The notes under the pieces: model-generated
Database searches by the model: none
What the model was told of the DNA's origin: nothing
The model's input: only the letters and a program-made list of their open reading frames with translations
Shown: piece after piece, positions 7,979 through 29,631 of the stretch
Layout: the number at the start of each line of letters is the position of its first letter
Position numbering within the stretch: position 1 is the first letter of the stretch
Made by a program: the position numbers and the translations under genes
Virus record (IMG/VR): IMGVR_UViG_3300044638_004201
Span: 1 to 64,000 of that record
DNA: 64,000 nt
Reading direction: 5' to 3' (one strand)
DNA from: a virus

Positions 7979-8700
7979 CTAGACTGTCCTAACGGATAGT
8001 CTAGTAAAAGAACTTACATTTGTCAAATCCAAAAAGCGGCCTGGGGAAAGCCCGCGCCTATATATGCCTAACGGATAGCAAAAAGTAAAAGCGGCGTGCG
8101 CCAATAAGCGGCGAGCGCAAAGCGCTGGATATATAACGGGTGCTGCCTGGATCGCAGATCCGACTAACGGGTACCAGAGTTGTCTGTAGTTGCACCAGGA
8201 AGACCGTTGATAACCGTCACGGTATGTTAGGGTTCGTACAAGGTTAGTTCTAAGACTGTACGTATAACGGATGGACTCAGTCGGAGTTTGAACGTTTGAA
8301 CGTAGCCCCTAAAAGTTCAGAACGTTTGAACGTTTGAACGGCTGCCTGGTGATCGAATTTAACAACCAACAACTTCTCCACTTTAACGTCCGCCGCCTCC
8401 TCCAGAACCAGAACCACCGCCTCCGCCGCCTGGTTGCATCTTTCATAAGTTGTTTATAGTTTGACAGCGGCCAGGGCCCATGAGCAAAAAGTAAAAACGG
8501 TGACGGATCTGCTGTGGACTTCTAGAGTTGTTTGTAGTTTGGACCAGGCGGCCCGCTGCCAGACACCTCCAGACACTTGAGCGTGTCGGCTTGACAACGG
8601 AGGGGTTTCGATACTAAACTCGCTTTGCGGCTTTAGCCGCAAAGTCAAACACGAACAACTCAACAACTTTTCGAAGCGGCCCGCGCTTAGCGGCGAGCCC
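7979..8700. repeat. Non-coding repeat-rich junction (candidate origin, terminus or injection-stop region)
   Basis: CCTAACGGATAG x2, TAACGG repeats, tandem GAACGTTT units at 8287-8340, CCGCC tracts, copies of motifs A and B. Confidence 0.7.
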
Positions 8701-8736
8701 TTGACACATTGATAACGGGTGTGTAATCTGTAGATT

Positions 8737-8916
8737 ATGTTAATAGAACTTTTTATAGCGGCCCGCCTAAACAGTGCTGCGAAATCCCTTAAGCAGAGTG
8801 AACCGCTGTCCTTTTCTGAGCAGACGCTTGCAAACATCCTTGACGACTGGTATTTGAAATTAGTTGACCGTGGTGAAGAACGGCGTGCCCTAAAAGCAGA
8901 ACTTGACAAGGAATAA
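8737..8916 (+). CDS. 59-aa hypothetical protein (leaderless)
   Basis: MLIELFIAARLNSAAKSLKQ...AELDKE; ATG 7 nt after TAATCT -10; not in track. Confidence 0.6.
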   Translation: MLIELFIAARLNSAAKSLKQSEPLSFSEQTLANILDDWYLKLVDRGEERRALKAELDKE

Positions 8917-8981
8917 CAGTAGGGGTAGCGTTGTTGTAAGGACCGTAGTAACGGATGAGACCTATAGAGAAAAGAGACGAA

Positions 8982-9167
8982 ATGAAAAAAGTATTAGCGG
9001 TGCTGTTGATTTCAGCAGTATCAACATTGGTGGTTCCAGCAAGTGCTCAAGCAAGTGACCCAACCCCACCCGCTGAGTGGAAGATGCCAGCAACCAGCAA
9101 GTACATGAAGTACAAGGGAATGGATTGTTGGAAGTGGTGGCGAATCACCAAGTGTCTTCCAAAGTAA
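8982..9167 (+). CDS. Small secreted protein
   Basis: MKKVLAVLLISAVSTLVVPASAQA signal peptide; two Cys. Confidence 0.65.
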   Translation: MKKVLAVLLISAVSTLVVPASAQASDPTPPAEWKMPATSKYMKYKGMDCWKWWRITKCLPK

Positions 9168-9205
9168 AACTTGACAATCTAGATTTACTATGTTTTAATT
9201 AGTTT

Positions 9206-9284
9206 TGTTCGGAAGGCAGAAACCTGATGCGGGATGATGTAGAGGGGTGCGGACCTAGGCCAAAAACCCAGTTCCTTCCGAACA
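9206..9284 (+). ncRNA. Structured 5' leader RNA (copy 1)
   Basis: 11-bp closing stem TGTTCGGAAGG/CCTTCCGAACA starting at the predicted TSS. Confidence 0.5.
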
Positions 9285-9306
9285 CCTAAAAGACAAAGGA
9301 GACAGG

Positions 9307-9483
9307 ATGTCTACAAAAGTAAAGATGGCAGTTATTCCCCAATGCGACATCTGCCAAAACGAAATCGCAAAGTATGACGCAATGACAACACGAGGACCTT
9401 GGGCTTACCAATGCGAAGGTTGCTTCGCTGACTATGGCGTAGGGCTTGGACTTGGCAAGGGTCAAGAATTGGTGGTGGCGTAA
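9307..9483 (+). CDS. 58-aa zinc-finger protein
   Basis: CDIC...YDAMTTRGPWAYQCEGCF...GLGLGKGQ; AAAGGAG RBS; not in track. Confidence 0.75.
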   Translation: MSTKVKMAVIPQCDICQNEIAKYDAMTTRGPWAYQCEGCFADYGVGLGLGKGQELVVA

Positions 9484-9740
9484 TGAAGGCACGAGAGTTA
9501 GTAGACCAACTACAGAAGTATGACCCTGATGAAGAAGTCATTGCTTTAGTTTGGTTCAAAGATACATTTGATTTTGATAACAATGACGACCTCACCCTTA
9601 CTGATGAGGCATGGCTTAAAGTCGTGAAAGAGATGGAAGAGTCTGGCGGGATTGATTCAGGCGAGCAACAAATCTCTGAGCACATTTCAGAATCAGTAGT
9701 TGAACATTCAACCATAAACATAAAAGCAGAGGAGAAATAA
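9483..9740 (+). CDS. Hypothetical protein, paralog of 17183..17431
   Basis: MKxxxLxxQLQxYxPDxExIxxxWxKxT...LTDxxWLxVV shared by both. Confidence 0.75.
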   Translation: MKARELVDQLQKYDPDEEVIALVWFKDTFDFDNNDDLTLTDEAWLKVVKEMEESGGIDSGEQQISEHISESVVEHSTINIKAEEK

Positions 9741-9741
9741 G

Positions 9742-10131: not shown

Positions 10132-10407
10132 TACTCTCTATACAAACGGCGAGCGCTTTAAGTTCCGTGCAGTGATACGGGCAAGCGCTCGCTTTTGTAT
10201 TTAACGGCAAGCCCACATCGTGAAACAGAACCCGCTGTCAATCTAAATAAGTTGTTCCGATGTGCACCAGAAGATCCGTGCATTTTTACTTTTTGCTCAG
10301 ATCCGGCGTTCGGGCTTGCTGCACTACAAACAACTTCTTGATGTCCGCCCGATAAGTTGCTACTTCCTACGCTTGACAAAAAGAACGGCGTGCTCTATGA
10401 TACGGGT

Positions 10408-10557
10408 ATGAAAAAGAGAAACCCACTTGACGGCTTGCTTCGCTTGCGAGGTCGCTTCGTGCTGAACCAAAAAGCACAGGTGTTTGCGGATAAGCGGTCT
10501 AAGAGAAACAAAAGTCGTGCCGAACAAAAACGGCGTGCCCTAAACGAACAGGAGTAA
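10408..10557 (+). CDS. Small basic protein (leaderless)
   Basis: MKKRNPLDG...DKRSKRNKSRAEQKRRAL; ATG 6 nt after TATGAT. Confidence 0.6.
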   Translation: MKKRNPLDGLLRLRGRFVLNQKAQVFADKRSKRNKSRAEQKRRALNEQE

Positions 10558-10564
10558 AAAGTAA

Positions 10565-11543: not shown

Positions 11544-11680
11544 GTAATGATGTGGCTTGGCAATCAACTCTCACAGAAGAAATGATTGCCCACCTGAGCG
11601 AACAAGAAATAAGTTTGCTTATCAACTCCCTCAATGAGTCAGTAGAAGAAATCTGCAACATCTACGAAGTCAAGGGATAA
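11540..11680 (+). CDS. 46-aa acidic hypothetical protein
   Basis: ATGA overlap with GGAG RBS; not in track. Confidence 0.6.
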   Translation: MSNDVAWQSTLTEEMIAHLSEQEISLLINSLNESVEEICNIYEVKG

Positions 11681-11689
11681 AAAGTAAAA

Positions 11690-11890
11690 ATGGGAAAACT
11701 TATTTCAATAGAACCAACCACAGACAACTCAACTACCTACTTTGCTCTGGACGGAAATTATGGCGAAGCGCAAGGCATGGTTGTCATTGACACGACCAAA
11801 TGGTCTGAGGACGATTGGACTCAGATTGACGAAGCAGGAGACTCAGACAGGGCGCAGGTTGCTCTTGATTTGACAAACAAATACGCTTAG
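11690..11890 (+). CDS. Hypothetical acidic protein
   Basis: ORF; start embedded in motif A. Confidence 0.65.
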   Translation: MGKLISIEPTTDNSTTYFALDGNYGEAQGMVVIDTTKWSEDDWTQIDEAGDSDRAQVALDLTNKYA

Positions 11891-12863: not shown

Positions 12864-13919
12864 ATGGAAACTATGAAAGAGCGTTATGCTTCACTTAGTC
12901 CAAATCTCACACCTACATTGTGGGAAATGATTATTGAAGTTGCCACACAGGGAGTAAATGAAAATGCTTCACTTACACTCAACGCAAGCGTTGCCCCACA
13001 GGGTCGCTATGTTGAAAGAGCGATTGGTTCAGAGCGTGCGCCAAGAAACTCCAAACTGAAAATGGAACTTCCAAATGTTGAAGGACTTATTGGTGCGGAA
13101 ACTTACCTGCGTCCAAATGGTTCTGCCTACCACGCTCGTATGTGGGGAGAACACAAAGATGTGGAAGCCCTACGCAAAGCACGAGAAGCAACAACTCAAT
13201 CTGTTCTTACAGGTGTTGGTTCTCCAATGTTCCCACTTCTTTATGGTGCGCCGGGGTGCGGAAAAACTGCGCTAGTTGAAGCGTCTTATGGAAATGAAGT
13301 TATTACTCTTATGGGTAATGGCGACATTGAAGCCTCTGACCTAATTGGTTCTTATGTCCAAACTCCAAGTGGAAACTTTGAGTGGATTGACGGCGGACTA
13401 ATTCGGGCTATGGAAAATGGTTGGGTTTATTTCATTGACGAAATTGGTCTGATTGACCCAAAGGTTCTCGCACTTGTTTATGGTGCTATGGACGGACGCC
13501 GAGAAATTGTTATCACTACAAACCCTGAGAGAGGTGTTGTCAAGGCACACGAAAACTTCTTCGTAGTTGCAGCGACAAATCCAAATGCTCCCGGAGTTCG
13601 TCTAAGTGAAGCGTTAGTATCTCGCTTTACTGTTCAGGCAGAAATGACAACTGATTGGGCACTTGCTCGTAAGTTAGGTGTGCCAACACTTTTGGTAACT
13701 TCTGCTCAAAATCTTTATCGCAAACAACTTGCTAGAGAAGGTGTTTCTTGGTCTCCACAAATGCGAGAACTTCTTGCGTTTAGAGACATAGCAATAACTT
13801 TCGGAACTTCGTTTGCGCTTTCCAACCTGATTGCTTCTGCCCCTGAAAACGATAGGGCAGTTGTCGCAGATGTTTTGTCTCGTGCCTTCGGGGAAGAGAT
13901 GAAACCAGCCAAAATCTAA
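12864..13919 (+). CDS. MoxR-family AAA+ ATPase (CbbQ/NorQ/CobS-like)
   Basis: Walker A GAPGCGKT, DLIG, Walker B YFIDEI, AATNP, ALVSRF. Confidence 0.9.
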   Translation: METMKERYASLSPNLTPTLWEMIIEVATQGVNENASLTLNASVAPQGRYVERAIGSERAPRNSKLKMELPNVEGLIGAETYLRPNGSAYHARMWGEHKDVEALRKAREATTQSVLTGVGSPMFPLLYGAPGCGKTALVEASYGNEVITLMGNGDIEASDLIGSYVQTPSGNFEWIDGGLIRAMENGWVYFIDEIGLIDPKVLALVYGAMDGRREIVITTNPERGVVKAHENFFVVAATNPNAPGVRLSEALVSRFTVQAEMTTDWALARKLGVPTLLVTSAQNLYRKQLAREGVSWSPQMRELLAFRDIAITFGTSFALSNLIASAPENDRAVVADVLSRAFGEEMKPAKI

Positions 13920-14002
13920 GTATCCCTGTCCTTAGGTTTTGGTTCGGGGAGTTGGGGATTGAGCGTGGTTCATTGGGTGTCCTTCGCTCTCCCCAACACC
14001 CC
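13909..14002 (+). ncRNA. Double hairpin with pyrimidine-rich anti-SD-like loops
   Basis: Stems 13909-13942 (loop TATCCCTGTC) and 13946-14002 (loop ...TCATTGGGTGTCCTT). Confidence 0.45.
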
Positions 14003-14083
14003 ACCTTTAGATTTGACAAGGAAAAGCAAAAAGTGTAGTATCTAATTGTTAGGTCGGAAGCCTGACAGAAAAGGGGAAATAAA

Positions 14084-15862
14084 ATGGCTCATCTAAAAAT
14101 GGGTGAAACCAAAGCACAGGCTACTCCTGTTGAGTGGCTCAAAGTTGGTAGAGACATTGGCTACATGGCTAACAAGTGGTCTCTACGAGATGATTTAGTT
14201 GCGTATGTTGGTCCGGGTGCTGGTGGTCCGGCACCTGCGTGCTACTCACCTACACAAGCAGAAGTTGAAGTAAATGTTGATGTTGCGTTTGCTAAAGGTA
14301 TTACACCTGAGGAAATTGGCGACATAACACTTCGCAAAACACAATACGAGTTTCCTAAGGCGACAGGTGCGATTATGCACGAAGCCTTCCACGCTCGCTT
14401 CTCACAATGGTCTATGCCTAAGGCGTATGAGGAATTAGAGAAGGACGAATACAACGCACTTATTCTTTTAGAGGAAAGTCGCATTGAGTATCAAGGTGTC
14501 AAGTCTCTATCTATCGCTCGTCCTTTCCTTCGTGCTTGCGCTATGGAAATTGTTATTGGCGATACAAAAGAAGGTATGGAAAACGAAACACAAACACAAT
14601 CGCTAACTAATTTAGTTGGTCTTGTCTTTGCTCGCATTGACGCAGGTATCTTAGATGAACACGAAGTCTTTGCGATTACAGAAATGATTACAGACCAACT
14701 TGGTGTAGATGTTGTTGAGCAACTACGAACAATCGCTCGTTCAGCACAAATGCACGACAACCACAAAGACGCCACAGAACTTTATCCACTAGCAAAAGAG
14801 TGGGCACGAATTGTTCGTGAAACTGCTAAAGAGCGTGGAGATGAACAAAAGCCTGAAGGTAACAAAGGTATTCCTTCTGAAATCATGGAAGCAATCATGG
14901 AAGCGTTGTCTGAGGCTTCAGATGAAGTAATGGCAAACAACTTCTCCGACTTGGGCGACCAAGAGCAGGGTGAGGACATGAGAGAGGAAGTCAAGGCAAA
15001 AGCCTCTGACGCACAAGAGCAAAACGAAAATCGTGAAATTGCTAATCAAGTGTTCTCTAAATCTTCAGGGCCGGGGCAATCAAAAACCAATAGCAAGTTG
15101 ATTGAACAACGCCAACCAACAAGTGAAGAACTATCTGCCTCTGTTCGTATTGGACAATGGTTAGAGAAAGCAAAGTATCGTGAGCGAGATGAACTACAAA
15201 TCGCAAGCGTGCTTCCACCCGGACGCCTTCGCACTAGAGCAATCGTCCAAAATGCAGCCTTGAAATCTCGTGGAGTAAATCAGCGAGTAGAGCCTTTCCG
15301 TAGAACTGTTCGCAAACACACAGACGACCCAACACTCAATGTTGGAATTATGGTCGACATTTCAGGTTCAATGGGAAGTGCTATGAACCCTATGGCTACA
15401 ACTGCGTGGGTAATGGCTAACGCAGTAAATCGTATTCAAGGAAACTGCGCTATGGTCTATTACGGAAATGATGTGTTCCCAACTCTAAAGGTTGGACAAA
15501 AACTTTCTGAAGTAAATGTTTATTCTGCTTCGGACGGAACTGAGAAGTTTAGTAAAGCGTTCTCAGCATTGGAAGGCGCACTTAACTTACTTCACGGAAA
15601 TGGCGCAAAGTTGTTGGTAATTGTTTCGGACGGAGAATACACTTCAGATGAAACAAGAAATGCCAAAGAGATTGTTGCCAAATGTAAAGAGGCAGGTGTC
15701 GCAATTTTATGGCTACCTTTTGATAATGGCAGAAGTGCGAAAGCGATTGGTGGAGATTATGCCGAAGTTGTTTTGGACATAAGCCGACCTGCGGAAGCCT
15801 CTGAAATTATTGGTCGTTCAGCAGAAAAAGTAATGACGAGAATTGGGCAACGAGTGGCGTAA
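14084..15862 (+). CDS. vWA-domain protein with N-terminal HExxH metallopeptidase-like domain (CobT-like MoxR partner)
   Basis: HEAFH, LEESRIE, MIDAS DISGSM, IVSDG. Confidence 0.88.
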   Translation: MAHLKMGETKAQATPVEWLKVGRDIGYMANKWSLRDDLVAYVGPGAGGPAPACYSPTQAEVEVNVDVAFAKGITPEEIGDITLRKTQYEFPKATGAIMHEAFHARFSQWSMPKAYEELEKDEYNALILLEESRIEYQGVKSLSIARPFLRACAMEIVIGDTKEGMENETQTQSLTNLVGLVFARIDAGILDEHEVFAITEMITDQLGVDVVEQLRTIARSAQMHDNHKDATELYPLAKEWARIVRETAKERGDEQKPEGNKGIPSEIMEAIMEALSEASDEVMANNFSDLGDQEQGEDMREEVKAKASDAQEQNENREIANQVFSKSSGPGQSKTNSKLIEQRQPTSEELSASVRIGQWLEKAKYRERDELQIASVLPPGRLRTRAIVQNAALKSRGVNQRVEPFRRTVRKHTDDPTLNVGIMVDISGSMGSAMNPMATTAWVMANAVNRIQGNCAMVYYGNDVFPTLKVGQKLSEVNVYSASDGTEKFSKAFSALEGALNLLHGNGAKLLVIVSDGEYTSDETRNAKEIVAKCKEAGVAILWLPFDNGRSAKAIGGDYAEVVLDISRPAEASEIIGRSAEKVMTRIGQRVA

Positions 15863-15983: not shown

Positions 15984-16014
15984 TCAACCAAAAAGTAAAA
16001 AGGGGAGAGACAAA

Positions 16015-16428: not shown

Positions 16429-16471
16429 ATATGATTTACTAAGCAAAGACTAGGAAAGGGGAAAAAGTAAA

Positions 16472-17005
16472 ATGCACACTTGTCATTTACTGCTCATTGA
16501 AGCAGAGGACGCAGAAGAAGCAAAGGCAAAGGTTCAATCAGCGATTGAGCCTGAGGAAGGAAACTATCCGACTTGGTCTGATTGGCACGGCGGATTTGAT
16601 GAAGGACTTGCTGGACGCTGGTCAGGTTTGTTTGAGGGCTGGGAAGAAAACAGAGATGTTCTTCAATACACCGAGAACAAGGTTCTTGCTGACGACATCA
16701 TCAAACAATTTGTTGGTTATCGTTTAGAAGAAATGAAAAGCCTTCTAAGTCAGATTGAAACTGCTGGGGACTTTGATTTCAATACTTATGTAAAAGCCTA
16801 CGACCCATACAAGCAAGAGTTCAATGACGCAGGTATGAACCTTTGGCGGGCACAGAGCCTTGTAAAGATACTCAATAACGATTGGTGTCCTTACACATAC
16901 ATTTACGACATACAAGACTATACGGCGAACCTAGAGTATTTCAAGGCACGGCTGGAAACCGCACCTGAAAAACAATTCATTGTTCCTGTTGATTTTCACT
17001 ACTAA
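16472..17005 (+). CDS. Conserved phage hypothetical protein
   Basis: MHxxHL, WSDW..G...GRWSG and C-terminal VDFH motifs. Confidence 0.75.
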   Translation: MHTCHLLLIEAEDAEEAKAKVQSAIEPEEGNYPTWSDWHGGFDEGLAGRWSGLFEGWEENRDVLQYTENKVLADDIIKQFVGYRLEEMKSLLSQIETAGDFDFNTYVKAYDPYKQEFNDAGMNLWRAQSLVKILNNDWCPYTYIYDIQDYTANLEYFKARLETAPEKQFIVPVDFHY

Positions 17006-17162: not shown

Positions 17163-17182
17163 CGGATAAGGAAAAAGTAAAA

Positions 17183-17431
17183 ATGAAAGTAAAAAATCTG
17201 ATTGAACAATTACAGGCATACACACCTGATACTGAACTGATTGTTGCTTACTGGGATAAAGAAACAGTAGAAGGCTACGCCTCTGGCTGGGGCGAACAAG
17301 ATAGGTTCGTGCTTACGGACGACCAATGGCTTGATGTTGTTGATAAGTATGATGACGGAGAGTGGCATTGGCAATCCTCTGCTGCACAAGATTTTACTGA
17401 CATGGCTAGAGATGTTGTTGCTAGTGAGTAA
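17183..17431 (+). CDS. Hypothetical protein, paralog of 9483..9740
   Basis: Shared motif pattern. Confidence 0.75.
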   Translation: MKVKNLIEQLQAYTPDTELIVAYWDKETVEGYASGWGEQDRFVLTDDQWLDVVDKYDDGEWHWQSSAAQDFTDMARDVVASE

Positions 17432-17588: not shown

Positions 17589-17645
17589 TCTCTGCAAAGG
17601 CAAAAAGTAAAAACTCACCAAAATCGCTAGTCACGAAAGGGAACT

Positions 17646-17801: not shown

Positions 17802-17922
17802 ATCACATAAGATTTATGCCCTTTTGATTTGACAAGCGTAAGCCTACTCGTGTAAAGTCTGTTTTGTTAGGTCGGATACCTAATGAAGGACAAAATGACA
17901 AACGAAAGAGGGAATTGGGCTT

Positions 17923-18309
17923 ATGCCTAGAACCGAAATCGCACAAGAGGTAGTAGTCAAAACTACTATCGCAGTAGCAACAAAGGAAGTAGCACTTGAC
18001 GCTACAAACGCTGGCGCACTTATCGCAGAACTCAATGCGACAAAAGACGCAATCAAAACTGCTCAGGACAAGGCGAAAGCCCTTCAGGCAGACATTTATC
18101 CTCTACTTGGATACACACTCGTAAATGGTGAGTGGGTTGGCGAAGCAGAGGTTGGCACAATCGCTGGTAATGTTGTTGTGAAGGTCGCAACAATCAACGC
18201 AACAAAGTTTGAGAAGGATAGACTTCTCAACGACAAGCCTGAACTCGCACCTGTGTTCGAGGCATACACAATCCCAGCCCCTTACAAGGCTATGAAAACA
18301 GGGAAGTAA
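17923..18309 (+). CDS. Hypothetical protein (coiled coil plus beta domain)
   Basis: Own promoter and terminator. Confidence 0.75.
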   Translation: MPRTEIAQEVVVKTTIAVATKEVALDATNAGALIAELNATKDAIKTAQDKAKALQADIYPLLGYTLVNGEWVGEAEVGTIAGNVVVKVATINATKFEKDRLLNDKPELAPVFEAYTIPAPYKAMKTGK

Positions 18310-18320
18310 TTTCCAAAGGA

Positions 18321-18352
18321 AAAGCCCCTCACCTTCGGGTGGGGGGTTTTTC
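18321..18352 (+). terminator. Intrinsic terminator
   Basis: GCCCCTCACC-TTCG-GGTGGGGGGT-TTTT. Confidence 0.85.
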
Positions 18353-18454
18353 TATAAAGATGTTTGGCAAAAAGTAAAAATGGAAGTTAATCAAATCTTC
18401 GAGGGAAACTACGAACAACTTGCGTAGAAAGGGAAAACCTGATAGGGTGCATTT

Positions 18455-20165: not shown

Positions 20166-20391
20166 CATACTTCTCAGTAGAACTGTGATGTTTGTTGGCG
20201 ATTACTTTACGCTAATGACCACTATTGTCTTAGACGAAAAACTACGCAACGAAAATGAAAGCGACAATGACTTTGCGGTTCGTGTTGCCTCTATTTTTAT
20301 GAACGAGTATTACGGATTTGATGTTGAGGCAGTATCTAATAGCATTGGTGTTGTTGATGAAAATGGAGATGAGGTAGAGGAAGATGTCTAA
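20158..20391 (+). CDS. Hypothetical acidic protein
   Basis: Overlapping operon ORF. Confidence 0.65.
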   Translation: MDSILLSRTVMFVGDYFTLMTTIVLDEKLRNENESDNDFAVRVASIFMNEYYGFDVEAVSNSIGVVDENGDEVEEDV

Positions 20392-20728
20392 CCTTGACTT
20401 TCTAGTATCTATTACTGAAGCCATTGAAACTGGCAAAGTAGATAATCAACTGGACACGATTGCTAAAGCAATTCAAGAGCGAAAGAACTTGTTGCGAACA
20501 GGAGTATCCATAGACGACTTCTCCATTGGGGATAGGGTTGTTATCAACGAAAGATGTGGCACAAAGTATTTGCGTGGTGAAGTAGCGACCATTGTTGGTA
20601 TTCGCAGAACCAAGATAACAATTCAGTTTGATAACCCTTCGGGCAGATTTGTTCGCAAGAACTCAGACGGAACTATCTACTCCTCAGATGTGGTTGTGCC
20701 GATTGAGATTGTTGATAGGAAAAAGTAA
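20384..20728 (+). CDS. SH3/KOW-like fold protein
   Basis: FSIGDRVVI...YL.GEVATIVGIRRTKITIQFD. Confidence 0.65.
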   Translation: MSNLDFLVSITEAIETGKVDNQLDTIAKAIQERKNLLRTGVSIDDFSIGDRVVINERCGTKYLRGEVATIVGIRRTKITIQFDNPSGRFVRKNSDGTIYSSDVVVPIEIVDRKK

Positions 20729-20759
20729 AAAACCTAAAAGTATGTTAAAGTGGTAACTC

Positions 20760-20862: not shown

Positions 20863-20947
20863 TCTAGAACTACTTGACTTCTGTGCGGTTTATGTTATGT
20901 TATAAAATCTAAAATCACTTCTTACAGACCCCATTACTATTTTGTGT

Positions 20948-21193
20948 ATGGAAATTGTCTCTAAGGATTATCACCCAAATGGTTCGGCTGCACCTTTTAT
21001 GATTGCGATTGTTGATGACCCTGCGGACGGGGACACTAAACTGGTAATAATGTTTGATGAAACTGACTATGTTGCGGTTTTATCACTTGACTCTCTACAA
21101 AGAGACGAGGACATTTCAGCAAGAAACAATGGATACCACGGGGATAGATACGAAAGATTGCGTTTAGACTTGTGGGACGGGTTTGCTGGCTAG
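20948..21193 (+). CDS. Hypothetical protein
   Basis: ORF downstream of a -10 element. Confidence 0.6.
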   Translation: MEIVSKDYHPNGSAAPFMIAIVDDPADGDTKLVIMFDETDYVAVLSLDSLQRDEDISARNNGYHGDRYERLRLDLWDGFAG

Positions 21194-21230
21194 GCAAAAA
21201 GTAAAAACTTACGAGGGTTGAGGGTGCGCT

Positions 21231-21797: not shown

Positions 21798-22024
21798 TAC
21801 CTAGTTAAGGCAAACTACAAACAACTTCTGTGCTGTGAGGACCGGCGTGCCGTAGATTTTTACTTTTTGCTGATGCACTGCTGCCGCTGCTGGTGACCTT
21901 CTGGAATTGTTGGTAGTCGTTAATACCTGGTTGAACAACCTATGAAACGATTTGCGTTAGCCCTTGTAAAAATAATTTGCGACACTACTTGACTTGCCTA
22001 TCCTAAAATGCTATCCTTCAGTTA

Positions 22025-23091: not shown

Positions 23092-23275
23092 CAAACAATT
23101 AGAAATGCCCCGCCTAGTGCGGGGTATTTTTATTTAATTTGCAGTGGGACGCTGTGGCAAAAAGTAAAAACCTGCAATAGCGCCCAGTGCATTTGCACAC
23201 TACAAACAATTTGAGAAGTCTAAAATCCCAGAAACCCTGACCCAAATGATGTGAAGACAAAACGGACATTTTGCC

Positions 23276-23291
23276 TGTGAAATAGGTCACA
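23276..23291. promoter_or_regulatory. CRP/GlxR-like site TGTGA-N6-TCACA
   Basis: Exact consensus; related sites at 17792, 29482, 29943 and 30632. Confidence 0.55.
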
Positions 23292-23367
23292 AAAATAATC
23301 CATTGAGAAATGCCTACCTCAATCGTCATAAGAGGTAGAGGGAAAAACAGAAAGGAGGAAAGCCTCA

Positions 23368-23994
23368 ATGGAAAAGACACTACAACAGAAACTAGACGAA
23401 CTAAGTAAAGCCTTAGAACCTGTCCTGTGGGATTTGCTAGATGAAGTGGAGAAAGACTAAGAGTCATTGACTTTTGGCTTACTTAATCGTCGTTAATAAG
23501 TAGAGGGATAAATAATCCCAAGAGGAGGAAGAAATGCTAAAACTGAAACAAACAAGAAAGGCAAGAAAGCAATACGAGCCAGAAGATGAGTTAGTGCTAG
23601 TAATGGACACACCTGACCTAGACGCTATGGAACACGAAGCCTTTAGGCTCAACACGGAAGTTTGGCTAGATGAAGTCTTAGGTTTGGGTGGGGGTGAATA
23701 AAAGGTATTTGACTTTTGTTTAGAGATGTAGTAAGATTAACTTATCAAAGAAGGAAGGGGGTGAAATAAATGATTTCTTTCGGAGATTTTGTAAATTGGG
23801 TAGAGCCTAATGGCAACTACGAGAACTACTGTATTCAATGCGGACGCAAGACAGGTAAGAACGCTTACCTAGTAAATGTATCCACAGGTGGTGCGGTGCT
23901 ACACCCAGCCAGCGAAGCAGACTCACAGGGGTTCTGGAACATAGGCAGAGAGTGTGCCAAAGAGTTTGATAAAGCGGTTCTGGTCAAGAACTAA
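23368..23994 (+). CDS. Three small genes (23368-23460, 23534-23701, 23770-23994)
   Basis: Each has a strong RBS; terminator at 24013-24043. Confidence 0.6.
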
Positions 23995-24215
23995 AGCCCA
24001 ACAGATTTTAGAGAAGCCCCCGTTGATGCGGGGGTTTTTTCTTTGGCAACTATAAACAACTTGGTCAAATCGAGGGCCCGGTGGTGCATTAGCAAAAAGT
24101 AAAAACTCTCCTTCAGATCCGCTGCAAGTAAAAACAACTTGGGTTGTTTGCTGAAGGGACTTGACAAATGTCAGGAAGGTTTGATAGTATGTGGATACCT
24201 AAGAAGGGGGAACTT

Positions 24216-24449
24216 ATGTTTAGAGATTGGCTATTCGGTGATTTCAAATACGCATACCGAACAACGAAGGTAGAGAAGATTATCTATAAGAAAATCGCTT
24301 TAGTAGTTATTGCGGTTCTGTTCATTATGATAATGATTGACGCCTCTGCTCTAGGTCTTGTTCTGTTCTTTGGTCTTGGCTGGTATGCCAAGCAAAAGTA
24401 TGACTTGAAAAAGAAAGTAGTGCGTAAGCGCAAGAAAAAAGTTTCATAA
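24216..24449 (+). CDS. Small membrane protein with basic tail
   Basis: Two hydrophobic segments; KKKVVRKRKKK. Confidence 0.65.
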   Translation: MFRDWLFGDFKYAYRTTKVEKIIYKKIALVVIAVLFIMIMIDASALGLVLFFGLGWYAKQKYDLKKKVVRKRKKKVS

Positions 24450-24508
24450 GCCGATTTGACAAATGTCAGGAAGGTATGATAAACTCTCCATAGAAAGGGG
24501 AAATACAA

Positions 24509-25042
24509 ATGAACACTTCTCCACAAGATGAAGCACTAGAACTACTAGAAACAAAAATAGCACCACGCTCTTATACGATTGACTATCCAAAAGAATTGTG
24601 GTCTGAGTTATTGCCCGGCTTATGGCAGGGTGGAACTGATGATGACGACATTTATGACCAACTAGCAACGCCAGCAATTACAAAAAAGAACTTTGATTTT
24701 GTGATTACAGCCTACGCTTGGGCTAATCCTGTTGATTGGTTTGTCAAGGAAATCCGTTTCGGATTTTATGACAGCGACATGGCAGACTTTGACCCAAATG
24801 ATTTACAAGGAATTGTTCGTATGGCTCACGCAGAGTGGAAGCGAGGACAGCGTGTCCTTATTCGTTGCCAAGCAGGTATGAACCGAAGTGGTCTAATTAT
24901 GGCTCTAGTCCTTATTCGTGAGGGCTACACGCCACAAGAAGCGATTGACTTGATACGGGCTAAGAGAAGCAAGCACGCCTTGTTCAATGGTCGCTTTGAG
25001 AAGTGGCTGAGTGAAGTTGATGTTTCGGCGTGGAGAAACTAA
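24509..25042 (+). CDS. Dual-specificity/tyrosine protein phosphatase
   Basis: CX5R loop VLIRCQAGMNRSG, upstream FYD, AIDLIRAKR. Confidence 0.88.
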   Translation: MNTSPQDEALELLETKIAPRSYTIDYPKELWSELLPGLWQGGTDDDDIYDQLATPAITKKNFDFVITAYAWANPVDWFVKEIRFGFYDSDMADFDPNDLQGIVRMAHAEWKRGQRVLIRCQAGMNRSGLIMALVLIREGYTPQEAIDLIRAKRSKHALFNGRFEKWLSEVDVSAWRN

Positions 25043-25139
25043 GACACGCCGAAAGTCAGGAAGGTTTGACAAAAGGTCAGGAAGGCTGTAATCTTAGGGT
25101 ATTGACTAGGAAAGTCAATAGAAAAGGGAGAAAGACAAA

Positions 25140-26073
25140 ATGAAAACAGAAGCAAAGTTTATTAGACGCAGAATTGCCGTTGGACTTATTTTGCTTGCTT
25201 TGTTCGCTTGGGCTCTTGACGCTACTACACCTGAGATGTGTAAAGTGCCGACAGAACAAATGAATCAATTTTGTTTAGACCTGTTGTATCCATAATAACT
25301 AAAGGGGGTAGTAATAATGTCAGGTTGGAGAACTAAAAAAGCAAATGCTTTAGCAAAAAGAGAAGCCTCTTTTATCAAAAGCAGAGAAAGACTTAGCACA
25401 CCTCGTGCGGAGTTTTTACTAAAGTTTGCTTTTATGAGTGATGAGCAGTTTGAGAAATGGTCTGAACTAAAGACAAGTGCCGAAGCAAGAGCCTTTATGG
25501 AAGCACTACCAATGCCTCAAATAAAAACAAATGAAGTGTTTATCAAACTAGACAAAGAAGAAAGATAGGGAAAAAGTAAAAATGAAGAAATGTATAAATG
25601 CTACTTGCGAAAGCACGGAGTTAGTTTATTCAGGCGTAGATGCGTTCTTGCTTGGTGGTATTGAAACAGAGAAGTGGTGCTACACCTGCGCCAATGCGAT
25701 TGCTTTATCTAACAGGAAGGAAGAATCAAATGTTGCTTGATAATGGAACAATGTTCGCAATAATTATTGCGCTTGCGGGTTCATGCTTTGTTATGGTTGT
25801 TGGTATCAGAGCGCAAGGTAAGTTGATACGGGAGAACAACAGACTTCGTAAAGAACTAACTGAACTTCACTACGAGAAGGTGAAGGGAGGAATCTAATGG
25901 AAGAAACTAATGTAATGCTTGACCCAATGGATTGCGGTCTTGCCTGTCAGTTTGAGTGGATAGAAGTATCATCAAACTTCTTCAGCGTTGCTGTCTATAC
26001 ACCTGCGTTGATAGTTGGTGTGCTTTCTTATTTCATCTACAAAGCGATAAAAAAGAAGAAACGAAAGGCGTAA
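25140..26073 (+). CDS. Run of five small genes (25140-25295, 25317-25568, 25582-25740, 25730-25897, 25897-26073), several membrane or Cys-containing
   Basis: Manual translation; RBS and overlaps. Confidence 0.55.
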
Positions 26074-26080
26074 TTCAGAA

Positions 26081-26284
26081 GTGGCAAAAAGTAAAAAGAT
26101 AGAGATTGATGCTGCAAAGTTATACAACTCTGGTCTTGCCATAGATGATGTGGCTGAAGAACTTGGTGTCTGTTATAGGACAGCGAGGAAAGCGATTCGT
26201 AGTAGTGGAGTTGTTTTGAGAGACCCTTCAGCCCGTCTCAGAGGTAGAACTAGCCCTAAAAGAAAGAAGGCAGGAAATGAATAA
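26081..26284 (+). CDS. Helix-turn-helix DNA-binding protein
   Basis: LYNSGLAIDDVAEELGVCYRTARKAIRSSGVVLR. Confidence 0.8.
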   Translation: MAKSKKIEIDAAKLYNSGLAIDDVAEELGVCYRTARKAIRSSGVVLRDPSARLRGRTSPKRKKAGNE

Positions 26285-26470
26285 TCTCAATGTAGTTTGG
26301 TCTGCGGTAGTTGCCAGCGTGGCATCTGCGCTCGCTGTTGTAATGGCTATCTGGGGAGACTCAGATGTGTCCTTAGCCCTCGGCGCTGTGGCGATTACTT
26401 CGGCTGTTCTGTCCATAAGGGAGAAACCTTAGGACTTGATTTCCTGTCAATAGTATGACATAATGAAGTT

Positions 26471-26525
26471 GGACTAGAGGCTCTCTGACACAAACCTTCC
26501 CCCGTCAGAGGGTCTCTATTCTTTT
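26471..26525 (+). ncRNA. Stand-alone hairpin sRNA with C-rich loop
   Basis: TTGATT-17-CATAAT promoter, 15-bp stem, loop ACAAACCTTCCCCC, U-tract; no ORF. Confidence 0.55.
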
Positions 26526-26585
26526 GGCGTGTCGCTTGACAAAGAACTTGGACTATTGTATTGTTGTCTATGAAAGGGGAAGAAA

Positions 26586-26702
26586 ATGACAAAAACCAAG
26601 AAAAAACAAATCATTTACATAGCCTGTTGGAAGTGCGGTAGCCAGTTTTCCCTGTATGAAAACGACTACAACCACGGGGCTTGTTGCGGAAAGTGCCTGT
26701 AA
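26586..26702 (+). CDS. 38-aa zinc-ribbon peptide
   Basis: CWKC...CGKC; own promoter and RBS; not in track. Confidence 0.55.
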   Translation: MTKTKKKQIIYIACWKCGSQFSLYENDYNHGACCGKCL

Positions 26703-26886
26703 AAGGCTACCTTCCTGACTTTCCTGTGATAGAGTATTACCTATGAACGACATACGACCTAACGACAAACTTAGGAAAGGTAAGTAATACCTGTCTCCCC
26801 AATGAGGGTGGCTCGGTTGGCTTAGTCAGCAACCCAACTGCGGTTTATACAACGCAGAGTCCATGTCCCCAAACAAAGGAAAATCA

Positions 26887-27519
26887 ATGCAGAAAACTAA
26901 GAGCAGAGTTGTCGAACAAATCTTGAGCGTATTGCTTTCGGTTGGAGTTATTTCGACTTTCTCTACCTATGTTCAAGCGTCCAACGCAGACGAACAAAAA
27001 GTAAAAACTGTTGTCGAAGTGCAGCAGCAACAGCAAGAAAAGAAAACCTACGAACAACTTATCGAGGCTGAAATCGTCGCCCATAAGGAAAAAATCAAGG
27101 CTCTACAACTCCAGAGGTTTGCTGACCAGCGAACCACCTTCACGGACGAAGAACTCGCTCAACTGCTCTATGCCGTTGGGTTTGAGGGCAAAGCCCTAAA
27201 GGTCGCTTGGGCTGTTGTGAAGAAGGAGTCTAATGGTCGCCCTATTGCCTTCAATGGCAATACAAGAACAGGCGACTCTTCATACGGAATCTTCCAGATT
27301 AATATGATTGGCGGACTAGGAGTAGACCGCCGAGAAAAGTTTGACCTCAAATCAAATGCGGAACTATTCAACCCAGTAGTCAATGCTGAGATTGCTTATC
27401 ACATGAGTAATGGTGGCGAAAAATGGGAGGCTTGGAAAGTTGGTAGCGGGTATAATGGTGTAGACCAAGAACGCTATGAATCTTGGCTCAAGAAGTTTCC
27501 CGAAGGAGTAACCCCTTGA
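26887..27519 (+). CDS. Membrane-anchored lytic transglycosylase (SLT/lysozyme-like)
   Basis: N-terminal TM, coiled coil, KKESNG, SYGIFQIN, LFNPVVNA, WEAW. Confidence 0.85.
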   Translation: MQKTKSRVVEQILSVLLSVGVISTFSTYVQASNADEQKVKTVVEVQQQQQEKKTYEQLIEAEIVAHKEKIKALQLQRFADQRTTFTDEELAQLLYAVGFEGKALKVAWAVVKKESNGRPIAFNGNTRTGDSSYGIFQINMIGGLGVDRREKFDLKSNAELFNPVVNAEIAYHMSNGGEKWEAWKVGSGYNGVDQERYESWLKKFPEGVTP

Positions 27520-27995
27520 TAGAGAACGCCAAAGAACCTGAGGTCTCAGAGCCAACACCCGTGCTTGAGAGTGCGGAAGTTGTCCCTACATTTGCCCCAC
27601 CAGCGCAACCCGAACCCGTGTGGACAGAGCCAGAAACTCTAGAAGCAGAAGTTGTTGAAGAAGTTGTTGCTGTTGCTGCACCTGTCGAAGAGGCAAAAAG
27701 TAAAAATGATGCACCAGCCCCGTCAAAACTTGCTGCATCTAAAAAAGTTGTTTCGTTGTCGAACCTTGTTTTCGAGTCGAAATCCAGAAATTCTGCATCA
27801 GTTGGTTTGGTGCAATTCCGTCTTGTCGAACTCGGCTTTCTCGATGCGGGTAGTGACAAGTTTGGTTGGCTAAGTGCAGGGACTATGAAGTCTCTCGCTC
27901 AGTTTGCTAAGACTTCGGTAGAAAAAGTCAATGCTCAGGACGAGAAACTAATCTCTTGTTTGTTCGAAGGGACTTCAGTAGAAGTCACTAACTAA
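27516..27995 (+). CDS. Protein with low-complexity N-terminus and peptidoglycan-binding-like C-terminal domain
   Basis: SVGLVQFRLVELGF...G.....T..SLAQF; start codon uncertain. Confidence 0.55.
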   Translation: MIENAKEPEVSEPTPVLESAEVVPTFAPPAQPEPVWTEPETLEAEVVEEVVAVAAPVEEAKSKNDAPAPSKLAASKKVVSLSNLVFESKSRNSASVGLVQFRLVELGFLDAGSDKFGWLSAGTMKSLAQFAKTSVEKVNAQDEKLISCLFEGTSVEVTN

Positions 27996-28007
27996 GTATT
28001 AACAAAA

Positions 28008-28145
28008 TCAACGCCTTGCTCGTCACTTAAACTTGACTTGCAGGGCGTTGTTTTTTACTTTTTGCGTCCTTGTGTGGAGTTTGGAAGGACGGCATAAGGC
28101 GTCAAAAAAGAAACCCCCTAGCAAAAACTAGGGGGCTTTCTTTAT
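28008..28145. terminator. Convergent terminators
   Basis: CAACGCCTTGC/GCAGGGCGTTG+T-tract (+); CCCCCTAG/CTAGGGGG with A-tract (-). Confidence 0.75.
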
Positions 28146-28159
28146 TCCAGAACCAGAAC

Positions 28160-28825
28160 TTAGACTGTGCTTCTGTTTTTGTGTAGAACGGGCTTGTAGG
28201 AAGAAGATTTTCCTAGTGTAGTTGTGCGGTATCCATACCGAACCAAGCGGAAAGCAAGTGCCGAAGTAGTTACTCCTAATAACTTTGCCAAGCGATAGAG
28301 AGTAACTTTTTGTTCGTTGTGTGCTTGATTGAGTAGGTAGGTGTATTCCTCAGCCTCAGCGCGAAAGCGAGGGCTGTTTGCTCTTACCTGCTGTGCGTAG
28401 GGTTGAAGTTCCTTCAGCCTTGCCAGTAGTTCAGGTGTAGGCATTACATAACGAGATTGCCCTACCTTTGGTGCGTGCTTTGGAACGGGTGGAACAAATA
28501 GCGTTGGCGGAACGCCTGTGCTAGTGTGAGAGTTTAGAATTACTCTAATCATCTGCGGAGATAATTTAGACGCTCTCGCTACGGACGCTTGTGTCCAGCC
28601 AGCACCTACTAACGCCACTACATAATCGTTTCTCATTTTTTTATCTAGTGGGCTTGTCAGCATAGAAAAAGCCACAACCACATTTTCAGGTAGTTGTAGT
28701 TTTGCTATTTTGTTCTGCCCTGCCCTGCGATAGAAAGTAGGTCTTTCTGTTCTAATTGCGTAGCGTGCCCCGTGAGCCTTTTCTAGTTGGCCGGGGTTAG
28801 TGCGGAAGTTGATTGCGGTTGTCAT
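28160..28825 (-). CDS. Double-HTH DNA-binding protein, paralog of 31115..31615
   Basis: GWTQASVARAS and VTLYRLAKLLGVT HTH segments joined by a Pro-rich linker. Confidence 0.75.
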   Translation of the reverse strand: MTTAINFRTNPGQLEKAHGARYAIRTERPTFYRRAGQNKIAKLQLPENVVVAFSMLTSPLDKKMRNDYVVALVGAGWTQASVARASKLSPQMIRVILNSHTSTGVPPTLFVPPVPKHAPKVGQSRYVMPTPELLARLKELQPYAQQVRANSPRFRAEAEEYTYLLNQAHNEQKVTLYRLAKLLGVTTSALAFRLVRYGYRTTTLGKSSSYKPVLHKNRSTV

Positions 28826-28842
28826 TTTGTCCTTTGTTTGAG

Positions 28843-29178
28843 TTAGTCAATACGGAGAAACTCACGAAGTTGTTTCGCGGTTTCATCATTGAGTCCTAGC
28901 GTTTCGCCTTCCTCACCTGTGCCACCTGTGAAGATTACATCTCCACAAATAAAGTCAGTAAGTCCGAAATACTTTTCCCATAAGAAAGTTGCCATAGGGT
29001 TGATTGGCAACCCATAAAGTTTTCCTTCTTCATTTACCCAGATTGTCAAGTCTGCGGTGAAGTCTATCGCTTGAACAAGTCCGCCTACGGCAGATTGAAG
29101 TTGCTCTAGTTGAGAACCTTCATCTGCTAGTTGGACTTCCTCTGCTTGTCCTTCAGCATTTAGTTTGATAGCAAGCAT
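28843..29178 (-). CDS. DUF3846 domain protein
   Basis: LQSAVGG.VQ...VNEEGKL.GLPIN..AT...ICGDVIF. Confidence 0.8.
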   Translation of the reverse strand: MLAIKLNAEGQAEEVQLADEGSQLEQLQSAVGGLVQAIDFTADLTIWVNEEGKLYGLPINPMATFLWEKYFGLTDFICGDVIFTGGTGEEGETLGLNDETAKQLREFLRID

Positions 29179-29239
29179 TTTATTTCCTTTCTGTTTGATA
29201 AGTGTAAGGCTAGACCATAGGAATAGCCCTTGTCAAGTT

Positions 29240-29413
29240 TTATTTATAAATTACTTTGTGCGTTGCTTTTATTGCTTTTACTACGACCCAAGAGAATAAT
29301 TTACCAATTATTTCTGCTTGCTCGTCATAACTAACAATAGGTGCTTTACGCTTTGGCTTGCGGTGTAGGCGTTTGTAAGTTCCTACTATTGCGCTATCAG
29401 GTAGTCCTCGCAT
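29240..29413 (-). CDS. 57-aa basic protein
   Basis: MRGLPDSAIVGTYKRLHRKPKRKAP...; own promoter and RBS; not in track. Confidence 0.65.
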   Translation of the reverse strand: MRGLPDSAIVGTYKRLHRKPKRKAPIVSYDEQAEIIGKLFSWVVVKAIKATHKVIYK

Positions 29414-29631
29414 TTTCTTTCCTTTCCCTTGTCTTAGTGATAATACTATGGCATAGCCTTACGCTTGTCAAGTCTTTAGGGTGTGTTTTAGGACACATTT
29501 AGTCTAGGGTTTAGAACGCTGTGTGCGGATAGTCTGCGAAAGTTGTTTGTAGAAGTAGAACCGGTTAGCCAGATTTTTACTTTTTGGCTACCTTCGCCAG
29601 AAAAAAACCCCCTTTCGGGGGCTTTTAGTTT

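Follow-up and report, generated by a model that had tools for sequence, protein, structure and literature searches.

A two-word composite with one preferred spacing in the early gene block of a freshwater actinobacterial phage family

Why does an early gene block that has been purged of restriction-type sites keep a few of them, and why beside two short recurrent words? The question arises in a 64,000-nucleotide stretch of DNA (the window) from an uncultured freshwater actinobacterial phage, whose early-gene word is shared by dozens of relatives. An earlier note on the window had described short islands holding both words and proposed that two proteins bound there either shield the DNA between them or present the sites as decoys.

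Anatomy and spacing of the islands

Motif A (tAGCAAAAAGTAAAAA) is a directional word of 14-16 bases found in early genes, and motif B (caaaCTACAAACAACTT) is a single asymmetric 13-mer. In the window, motif A has 23 matches at up to two mismatches (2.5 expected) and 19 at up to one mismatch, all within 6870-29587. Motif B has 26 matches (3.2 expected), and the 12 with at most one mismatch all lie within 8447-30950. No information was detected in motif A beyond its 16 nt. Both motifs, conserved in many IMG/VR relatives, are confined to the early block of 6.8-31 kb; in the 125-kb relative G001, motif A is likewise confined to one block of about 23 kb. Motif A follows the local direction of transcription in 17 of the 19 copies, and 16/18 and 13/14 copies lie on one strand in relatives. 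About a third of the A copies have B 41 bases away. Both motifs are real, and their co-occurrence in short islands was borne out in the window and in relatives. The block and its islands are as follows.

8600-31000: small-gene early block carrying about 25 sigma-A-type promoters; A and B sites are found only inside it or at its left edge
8078-8189 (+): loose island in an iteron-rich non-coding region; A variant 8078-8091, B(-) with two mismatches 8177-8189, offset 99; inverted pair GGATC-gca-GATCC at 8149-8161
8447-8537 (+): island at the left edge of the purged block (8484); B(-) 8447-8459, A(+) 8484-8497, CAGATCC(-) 8505-8511, B(-) 8525-8537; offsets 37 and 41; GATC 8506, CCWGG 8471, GGGCCC 8474
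10240-10336 (-): island; A(-) 10283-10296, B(+) 10324-10336, offset 41, degenerate B on the other side; GATC 10273 and 10300 flank A; sigma-A-like promoter follows at 10373
18367-18421 (+): island preceded by terminator 18325-18351; A 18367-18380, B 18409-18421, offset 42; at its 3' end B overlaps a TTGCGT-17-TAGGGT promoter, predicted to start transcription at the ATG of gene 18455, a leaderless layout
21815-21870 (-): island facing the 3' end of an HslV-like gene; A(-) 21857-21870, B(+) 21815-21827, offset 42; CCGG 21842, CCWGG 21926 nearby
23157-23212 (+): island after terminator 23108-23131; A 23157-23170, B 23200-23212, offset 43; three TGCA in the spacer; 97% identical in relative L018
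24050-24140 (+): island after terminator 24017-24040; B 24050-24062, A 24092-24105, CAGATCC 24114-24120, B-like 24128-24140; offsets 42 and 36; GATC 24116, GGGCCC 24074, CCGG 24078; promoter TTGACA-18-TAGTAT follows at 24161
26994-27060 (+): A and B with one mismatch each, 54 bp apart, in the linker of SLT-lysozyme-like gene 26863-27519; also present in the close relatives L018, L019 and L026
29540-29587 (-): island in a leftward gene block, preceded by terminator 29601-29620(-); A(-) 29574-29587, B(-) 29540-29552, offset 34; CCGG 29561; promoter 29443-29471(-) follows

On re-measuring, all left-coordinate offsets quoted in the earlier note were correct (41, 41, 42, 42, 43 and 42 bp); the window also holds offsets of 34, 36, 37 and 54 bp. 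When B was placed at random in the block, 0.058 A-B pairs were expected at 41-43 bp, compared with the six found (p<5e-5), so that the spacing is enriched, as the earlier note had asked to be checked. Among 45 non-redundant islands from the window and relatives, 21 have offsets of 41-43 bp, with a peak at 41-42 bp and tails at 34-37 and 45-59 bp. B occurs as often downstream of A as upstream, and the centre distance is identical for both orientations of B on both sides. The free orientation of B suggests recognition at the level of DNA rather than RNA. It also fits poorly with a stereospecific contact between proteins. Where B copies flank A, they may be direct, inverted or single. A 10.5-bp periodicity was not found among the A-B offsets, the vector strength (0.27) being equal to that of unrelated periods. 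The geometry is one preferred distance without helical periodicity. Of the proposal that two proteins bind about four helical turns apart, two sequence-specific sites at a fixed distance remain, and the phasing by helical turns does not.

Motifs, spacing mode and site retention all recur in relatives, the spacing at portal identities down to about 75%, as the earlier note had expected of a real arrangement. The islands are old and orthologous across relatives, and in one relative that is 92-96% identical overall they are 97-99% identical. A sister clade carries equivalents at equivalent places (gGGGTAAAAA and TTCCAAATAACTT) with the same local palindrome enrichment, both words having changed spelling together. 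Among 185,579 species-representative genomes of bacteria and archaea, the composite gave only nine scattered single matches, and no prophage form was found. The islands are composites of two sequence-specific sites ~41 bp apart, conserved across the phage family. Independent elements would not give so sharp and conserved a spacing mode, which argues against A and B being unrelated.

Two uses of motif A

Motif A also occurs outside the islands, in many cases close to gene starts.

6870-6883 (+): gene-proximal A, ending on the first base of the ATG of gene 6883-7815
11677-11690 (+): gene-proximal A variant; fills the stop-to-start gap and adjoins the ATG of gene 11690-11890
15988-16001 (+): A variant (CC) downstream of a hairpin; a GGGGAGAG ribosome-binding site and ATG come next
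16460-16473 (+): GG-spelled A variant overlapping the ATG of gene 16472-17005
17170-17183 (+): GG-spelled A adjoining the ATG of gene 17183-17431, with TAACGGATA directly before
17600-17613 (+): A with gene 17646 32 nt downstream; that gene has a ribosome-binding site of its own
20718-20731 (+): GG-spelled A across the end of gene 20384-20728; the gene that follows has its own promoter at 20874
21194-21207 (+): A immediately past the stop of gene 20942-21193, with 23 nt left to the HslV-like gene; GGGGTAAAAAA stands at the identical place in the sister-clade ortholog
25569-25582 (+): GG-spelled A filling the whole 13-nt gap from stop 25568 to ATG 25582
26084-26097 (+): A overlapping codons 2-6 of small HTH gene 26081-26284
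27693-27706 (+): intragenic A in 27483-27995, translated as A-K-S-K-N; conserved at the orthologous site of about 17 relatives; in the sister clade this site reads GGGGTAAAAAA, beside that clade's only GATCs
28052-28065 (-): orphan A(-) in the gap of a convergent gene pair, past the terminator of gene 28160-28825(-), with nothing but a hairpin beyond it

An ATG is abutted by 27/140 non-redundant A sites (6-8/21 in the window), and spelling depends on context. The GG spelling accounts for 13/27 ATG-abutting sites vs 0/33 B islands, while 25/33 B islands have the GC spelling (p=4e-6 for spelling by context). Motif A has two uses, with GG copies at starts and GC copies in B islands. Compared with sites lacking B, more of the sites with B come after a terminator (12/36 vs 9/84), somewhat more precede the next sigma-A-like promoter (10/36 vs 13/84) and fewer abut an ATG (4/36 vs 17/84). 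Relative to A, sigma-A-like promoters are downstream at 30/140 sites and upstream at 5/140; no overlap of the two was found. In the sister clade the word, GGGGTAAAAA(TG), consists of a perfect SD and a spacer. Together with the gene-proximal copies, this spelling shows that A has part of its role in translation.

Restriction-type sites in and around the islands

Apart from a few exceptions, the block at 8600-31000 is free of GATC, CCWGG, ACGT and GTAC, and low in GGCC and CGCG. Between 8400 and 33000, GATC occurs only at 8506, 10273, 10300 and 24116, all in islands, and CCWGG only at 8429, 8471, 8544 and 21926, the last 56 bp from motif A; both GGGCCC sites are in islands. The claim that the otherwise forbidden sites lie in or beside islands thus holds for GATC, CCWGG and GGGCCC, every early-block copy of which in the window is in an island or ≤60 bp from one. 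It does not extend to CCGG, with only 6/19 early-block sites in islands, or to ACGT and GTAC, which are not retained. The suggested enrichment of palindromes near the motifs was confirmed, purged sites reaching 8-24 times the density in A-B spans that they have elsewhere in the early blocks. Intergenic DNA outside the islands (4.9 kb) shows the same depletion as coding DNA.

To define neutral expectation, we shuffled 45 non-redundant spacers (1365 bp). GATC (16 vs 4.7 expected) and TGCA (18 vs 4.6) were ~3.5-fold over neutral, and AGCT, GGCC, CCGG and CCWGG were at neutral levels. In contrast, ACGT and GTAC were absent from these 1365 bp (0 vs 4.7 expected, p about 0.008 each). The GATC and TGCA excess is carried by the recurrent words AGATCC and GCAGC; GCAGC is present in 16/45 spacers and GATCC in 11/45, both enriched over shuffles. 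The retained palindromes vary by lineage (AGCT in the clade of relative G003, GATC and GGCC in the window phage). Spacer sequences turn over between relatives, so that any spacer requirement must be loose. The site counts point to a spacer whose own sequence is constrained (AGATCC, GCAGC); occlusion by a bound protein may add tolerance of AGCT, GGCC, CCGG and CCWGG.

A selectively purged early block has a precedent in the first-step-transfer DNA of phages T5 and BF23, which, unlike the remainder of the genome, is free of restriction sites. The likeness lies in one purged early-gene block. The difference is that first entry of the window's block is only a surmise, and we know of no islands described in T5 that keep restriction sites.

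Related systems and possible explanations

The closest known systems are the start-associated sequences (SAS) and extended SAS (ESAS) described in mycobacteriophages of Cluster K and Microbacterium phages of Cluster EF (PMC3203893, PMC7302621). Like motif A, SAS is a short asymmetric word of actinobacterial phages with 10-20 copies per genome, nearly always in one orientation (17 of 19 along transcription here), many of them at the ribosome-binding position. A second motif, whose spelling differs by subcluster, accompanies about half of the copies (SAS) or a third (here). However, only a subclass of A abuts starts, most copies, including the island class, lying elsewhere. The GC-spelled A does not pair with 16S rRNA: GCAAAAAGTAAAAA lacks an SD, which only the GG spelling and the sister-clade word offer. 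ESAS lies directly upstream of start copies as inverted repeats, whereas B is depleted at ATG-abutting copies and stands 41 bp away, on either side, with non-start copies. Restriction of A to one 23-kb block and local keeping of restriction-type sites are further differences.

Cluster A mycobacteriophage stoperators, the L5 gp71 repressor sites, are 13-bp sites in transcription regulation (PMC3203893). They resemble motif A in being asymmetric (about 13-16 bp), in copy number (about 20-30), and in lying in intergenic gaps, overlapping stops or starts, oriented with transcription. Stoperators are spread over both arms, however, whereas A is confined to one early block of ~23 kb in the window and in G001. 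In addition, no A copy overlaps a recognisable early promoter, partner B and its fixed spacing have no counterpart, and neither an integrase nor a repressor-integrase module or other sign of lysogeny was found among the window proteins scanned (contig 55% complete). The relative DSL-LC01 encodes a small 'recombinase family protein'. Also similar are the oriented intergenic repeats of Microbacterium phage Clusters EC, EG and EI and the 17-bp inverted repeats of Cluster O (PMC7302621), which lie 14-30 bp before starts in non-structural regions of actinobacteriophages and persist even beside differing genes. These are single motifs of other sequence, with no two-motif geometry or link to restriction avoidance described.

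Our leading explanation, held tentatively and at somewhat less than even confidence, is that the islands are protein-binding regulatory modules at the gaps between early transcription units. Motif A would be this lineage's spelling of a directional control word for the early gene block. GG copies, which resemble start-associated sequences, sit at the ribosome-binding position directly before starts of genes without a promoter of their own, and GC copies (tAGCAAAAAGTAAAAA) form the cores of stand-alone ~100-bp modules. In such a module, one or two copies of B, facing either way, lie 41 bp (centre to centre) from the junction between the two heptads of A, to one side or to both, across a relatively GC-rich spacer of about 27 bp with AGATCC and GCAGC words. 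One sequence-specific factor would bind A and another B, and the resulting nucleoprotein complex most likely would control (block, insulate or time) transcription between units. Purged palindromes would survive through selection on the spacer's own sequence and probably through protein occupancy, not as decoys. The anatomy, spacing and conservation, the dependence of spelling on clade and context, and the site statistics are observations; protein binding, the binders and the effect on transcription are what we infer. Judged by sequence and distribution, the best candidate for an island-binding regulator is the following.

28160-28825 (-): two-HTH protein, 221 aa; homologues often score as Sigma70_r4

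When DNA was compared, this gene occurred only in A-type relatives and was missing from one A-type subclade; the phyletic profile yielded no other DNA-binding candidate.

Alternatively, A might be a phage-specific (middle-class) promoter read by host RNA polymerase modified by a phage factor, e.g. WhiB-like, with B as a site for an activator or a repressor. In favour, A has a direction, is limited to the early block and often comes after a terminator where no other promoter would fit; upstream of genes in the block stands either A or a sigma-A-like promoter. Each of the four relatives searched (three near-complete contigs and DSL-LC01) has two to three WhiB genes, and from copies abutting an ATG one would expect leaderless or near-leaderless transcripts, a common type in Actinobacteria. 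The classical distance of class II activators is also about 41 bp. A search for a single-subunit RNA polymerase gave no match, but neither did the control genomes, so that it carries no weight. We nevertheless consider a promoter unlikely: no -10/-35-like element was found at a fixed distance from A, which carries no information outside its 16 nt, the conserved A within gene 27483-27995 has nothing downstream to transcribe, and three A sites face convergent-gene 3' ends or a hairpin only. B, as often downstream as upstream, has a -10 at the right distance in only 2/52 cases and is not itself a -35 element. Somewhat less probable again is a role for A in RNA alone, as a start-associated leader or a translational operator of the kind seen in T4 RegA targets or the SAS of Cluster K, B being an unrelated DNA element in the same intergenic space. 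Exact abutment of an ATG by 22/163 copies (roughly 2.5 times chance), the filling of 13-nt stop-to-start gaps by several copies, the SD-like sister-clade word, the GG enrichment at starts and the strict mRNA sense of A all point this way. However, about a third of the copies lack a nearby start, are spelled in the non-SD GC form and hold the fixed distance of 41 bp to an orientation-free B, and some copies are antisense to neighbouring genes.

The original proposal, that proteins on A and B shield the spanned DNA so that selection against the sites lapses, or that the sites are decoys or traps, now appears improbable. The shield is weakened rather than dismissed: the sites are concentrated in A-B spans while other intergenic DNA is not exempt, and neutral AGCT, GGCC and CCGG with lineage-specific retention are as relaxed avoidance predicts. 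But the absence of ACGT and GTAC, together with GATC and TGCA above neutral, which indicates positive selection and not relaxation, argues against a general shield and against decoys, and nothing backs a trap function. Moreover, a shield would be needed already at DNA entry, and we know of no protein that shields DNA on entering a cell. Very improbable is a role of A and B as recombination linkers, or as pieces of mobile cassettes, that shuffle early genes, like the promoter-early stem-loop cassettes of T4 or miniature transposons, with sites persisting in young elements. Cassette indels do fall between islands (23292-24017 is absent in L018, 11544-11693 in relatives from RNA-library contigs), and homology to several relatives starts or stops at A 25569-25582. 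Yet only 6/209 homology breakpoints lie at A (4.3 expected by area), compared with 34 vs 10.8 expected at ordinary gene starts; flanking B copies lack consistent terminal repeats, and the islands are not young.

Beyond the regulatory reading, it is conceivable, though we think it doubtful, that the islands are protein-occupied 'safe harbours' that keep or enrich lineage-varying palindromes (GATC, AGCT, CCWGG, GGCC, CCGG) beside the control word. If so, they might serve as methylation-sensing switches that distinguish the infecting genome from its replicated copies, or alternatively be the footprints of a factor bound when the first DNA enters the cell.

Words A and B in the early block

The window covers the first 64 kb of a virus contig from IMG/VR (73.8 kb; completeness estimate 55%), and its genes for portal, capsid, tail and tape measure mark a siphovirus. 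Its nearest named relative is Actinomycetia phage DSL-LC01, a lake metagenome phage (portal identity 73%), followed by Microbacterium and Arthrobacter phages of ~190 kb; a related portal is encoded in >400 IMG/VR contigs. Between portal and protease, the gene at 35323-44733 encodes a 3136-aa protein, probably a virion protein that is ejected, in which an exonuclease domain of RNase_T type spans residues 1313-1496 and the C-terminus gives a weak PI3/PI4-kinase-like match. WhiB genes number 2-3 in each of the four relatives searched, namely DSL-LC01 and three near-complete contigs; this fits an actinobacterial host and the use of host RNA polymerase. A T7-like RNA polymerase that might read A was sought with PF00940, giving 0 matches in five genomes, and 0 in the control genomes as well.

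The block of small genes at 6.8-31 kb, upstream of the head genes, gave 0 megablast matches to phage records, and scans of it returned no Rfam family and no tRNA. The block or its close relatives are present in RNA-library contigs from lake metatranscriptomes. Contig depth was highest over the promoter-to-terminator unit 17829-18351, transcript ends and strand being not readable from contigs.

Two words recur in this early block. Both proved real: A, a directional word, has 23 matches (<=2 mismatches) compared with 2.5 expected, and B, a 13-mer, has 26 compared with 3.2. All good copies in the window lie within 6.8-31 kb. A is the 15-16-mer tAGCAAAAAGTAAAAA, built of two heptads, GCAAAAA and GTAAAAA; alignment of 165 distinct copies from relatives revealed no information outside the word. 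In G001, a 125-kb relative, 17 of the 18 A copies fall inside one 23-kb block, and 16 of the 18 are on the same strand. DSL-LC01 has neither A nor B. It carries its own stereotyped early-gene words (L009/L090, record positions 24000-43400; ~17 copies each), one promoter-like with TAAAGATGTTATA and the other a ribosome-site word with AACGACGAAAGGACAA. The composite of A and B gave 9 scattered single matches in representative bacterial and archaeal genomes, in unrelated AT-rich taxa and not beyond chance. A role of A as recombination linker was rejected, homology breakpoints not being enriched at A.

At the left edge of the block purged of restriction-type sites lies ~0.9 kb of non-coding DNA (7980-8960) that could be a replication origin or master control region. 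Within it TAACGGRTR is repeated seven times on one strand (window total 8, compared with 0.9 expected), and five iterons of 8 bp, GTTTGAAC/GAACGTTT, lie at 8286-8340; the latter account for a local ACGT cluster. TAACGGATA, at 8069 and 17160, also stands immediately before A. Only one gap of >4 kb in the early block is free of A copies, and it holds neighbouring genes for a MoxR/CobS-like AAA ATPase and a VWA-domain protein (12864-15862), side by side in mid-block.

Geometry of the islands and the two uses of A

A and B combine with an intervening spacer into short islands. The offsets listed in the earlier note are exact, and the preferred spacing withstood a test against random placement, with six pairs at 41-43 bp compared with 0.058 expected (p<5e-5). 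Among 45 islands that are less than ~75% alike, 21 have an offset of 41-43, and the remainder fall at 34-37 and 45-59. In relatives the positions of the B core, in both orientations, are concentrated at -45 to -41 and +35 to +51 relative to A; measured centre-to-centre, B lies ~41 bp from the heptad junction of A, on either side. The helical phasing proposed for this distance did not hold up: the vector strength of the 45 offsets at 10.5 bp was 0.27, not above that at unrelated periods.

B was rejected as a -35 box, only 2 of 52 sites fitting. A strong hairpin or antisense terminator in the spacer was likewise rejected, the folding tendency being weak (mean z -0.44, p=0.012); between the window and its close relative L018, the spacer of island 21857 shows no compensatory changes.

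About 25 sigma-A-type promoters (TTGAC[A/T]-N16-19-TAnnnT) map to 8591-30611, along with many terminators, and genes in the block are preceded by either such a promoter or A. Many of these promoters have a perfect TTGACA. A leftward block (29200-30611) repeats a promoter-gene-terminator unit four to five times, and the promoter at 18419-18447 would make a leaderless mRNA of gene 18455. Nine or ten copies of A are gene-proximal, several occupying a 13-nt stop-to-start gap and ending in the A of ATG. The contexts of A with and without B are as follows.

Context of A sites with B compared with A sites without B
Terminator just upstream of A: 12/36 with B, 9/84 without B
Sigma-A-like promoter within 130 bp downstream of A: 10/36 with B, 13/84 without B
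A abutting ATG: 4/36 with B, 17/84 without B

Sigma-A-like promoters lie downstream of A at 30 of 140 sites and upstream at 5 of 140. The spelling of A tracks context: the GG variant occurs in 13/27 ATG-abutting sites compared with 0/33 islands (p=4e-6), and the GC variant in 25/33 islands.

Two cassette indels were seen. The first (23292-24017), a segment of two small genes, is missing in L018 and wholly uncovered in four RNA libraries; the second (11544-11693) comprises a 46-aa ORF and an A copy and is skipped in contigs of two RNA libraries. A segment of ~80 nt downstream of B 23200 (23213-23290), within a 440-nt stretch free of plus-strand ORFs, has been kept in L018 and, with looser similarity, in the relative L041, and may be a small RNA or regulatory leader.

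The same architecture was recovered in a sister clade, whose members G003, L064, L085 and L065 lack A and have gGGGTAAAAA at equivalent kinds of place, among them orthologous positions ahead of the HslV-like gene and within the counterpart of gene 27483-27995; a B-like word, TTCCAAATAACTT, lies ~40-60 bp away. GATC, AGCT, CCWGG and CCGG are 3-5-fold enriched near the sister-clade word. On these sequence comparisons the architecture is family-wide and the spelling of both words shifts jointly, as expected if co-evolving phage factors recognise them.

A lead to such a factor, short of an assignment, is the protein of the leftward gene 28160-28825, a candidate binder. It has two helix-turn-helix domains (model pLDDT 82), and many of its homologues score as Sigma70_r4. 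Foldseek matches to the model were weak (E at least 0.03), mostly to sigma-A chains and paired domains. Its distribution is limited to A-type relatives, one A-type subclade lacking it. Two binder candidates from phyletic profiles were discarded: ORF 25897-26073, which had the highest correlation, encodes a small membrane peptide, and 30836-31021 (minus strand) is probably not a gene.

Restriction-type sites in the islands

AGCT shows the strongest avoidance in the window (0 compared with ~292 expected), which holds for the early as well as the late region; a few copies are retained in related phages, mostly beside the polar word. The early block is almost without GATC, CCWGG, ACGT and GTAC. 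As the earlier note had indicated, the exceptions are local: between 8400 and 31100, every GATC, CCWGG and GGGCCC is in an island or <=60 bp from one, and the remaining intergenic DNA (4.9 kb) shows the same depletion as coding sequence. CCGG shows the reverse regional pattern to GATC, CCWGG and ACGT, with 19 of 23 sites in the early block (10303-30962) and 4 in the 33-kb late region (32000-64000).

When the window is taken together with 16 relatives, GATC is denser in A-B spans than in the rest of the blocks (11.5-fold), as are CCWGG (24-fold), GGCC (11.5-fold), AGCT (13.5-fold), CCGG (8-fold) and TGCA (4.5-fold), bearing out the suspected association. ACGT, GTAC, CGCG, GCGC, CATG and CTAG are not enriched there. 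The 45 spacers (1365 bp in all, 51% GC) were shuffled to give a neutral expectation. GATC (16 compared with 4.7) and TGCA (18 compared with 4.6) exceed it, an excess due to recurrent words (AGATCC/CAGATCC, and GCAGC in 16/45 spacers). AGCT, GGCC and CCGG are at neutral levels, and ACGT and GTAC are both 0 compared with 4.7 expected. One relative shares 92-96% identity overall and 97-99% within islands, and in more distant relatives island GATC is kept at shifted positions.

Two explanations had been offered for these exceptions, namely that bound proteins shield the spanned DNA or that the sites act as decoys or traps for restriction enzymes. General shielding is contradicted by the continued lack of ACGT and GTAC in the spacers; nothing was found in favour of decoys. 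Selection on the spacer's own sequence best accounts for the persistence of purged sites, GATC and TGCA being above neutral, possibly with added help from protein occupancy for AGCT, GGCC and CCGG, which are at neutral levels.

A putative two-factor module

The most economical account is a two-factor regulatory module that would act at the DNA level, at the boundaries of early transcription units, and whose word A would double elsewhere as a start-associated leader; our confidence in this mechanism is modest. Among described systems, SAS/ESAS and stoperators come closest. Some defining features of both were tested and did not apply here, and the module is thus a related variant rather than a member. 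A tie between such modules and exceptions to site avoidance was not found in PMC3203893 or PMC7302621.

Directional repeats of actinobacteriophages (SAS/ESAS, stoperators and the Cluster EC/EG/EI repeats) are a long-standing puzzle. To this the present phages add a geometrically defined two-site module, one word split clearly between translation-start use and DNA-module use, and a link between the module and local exceptions in restriction-site avoidance. These phages are abundant in lakes and their hosts are uncultured low-GC Actinobacteria, so that regulation and restriction exposure matter for the ecology of viruses and their hosts in fresh water. Should protein occupancy underlie the exemption, maps of site avoidance could be read as computational footprints of the DNA-binding factors of uncultured viruses.
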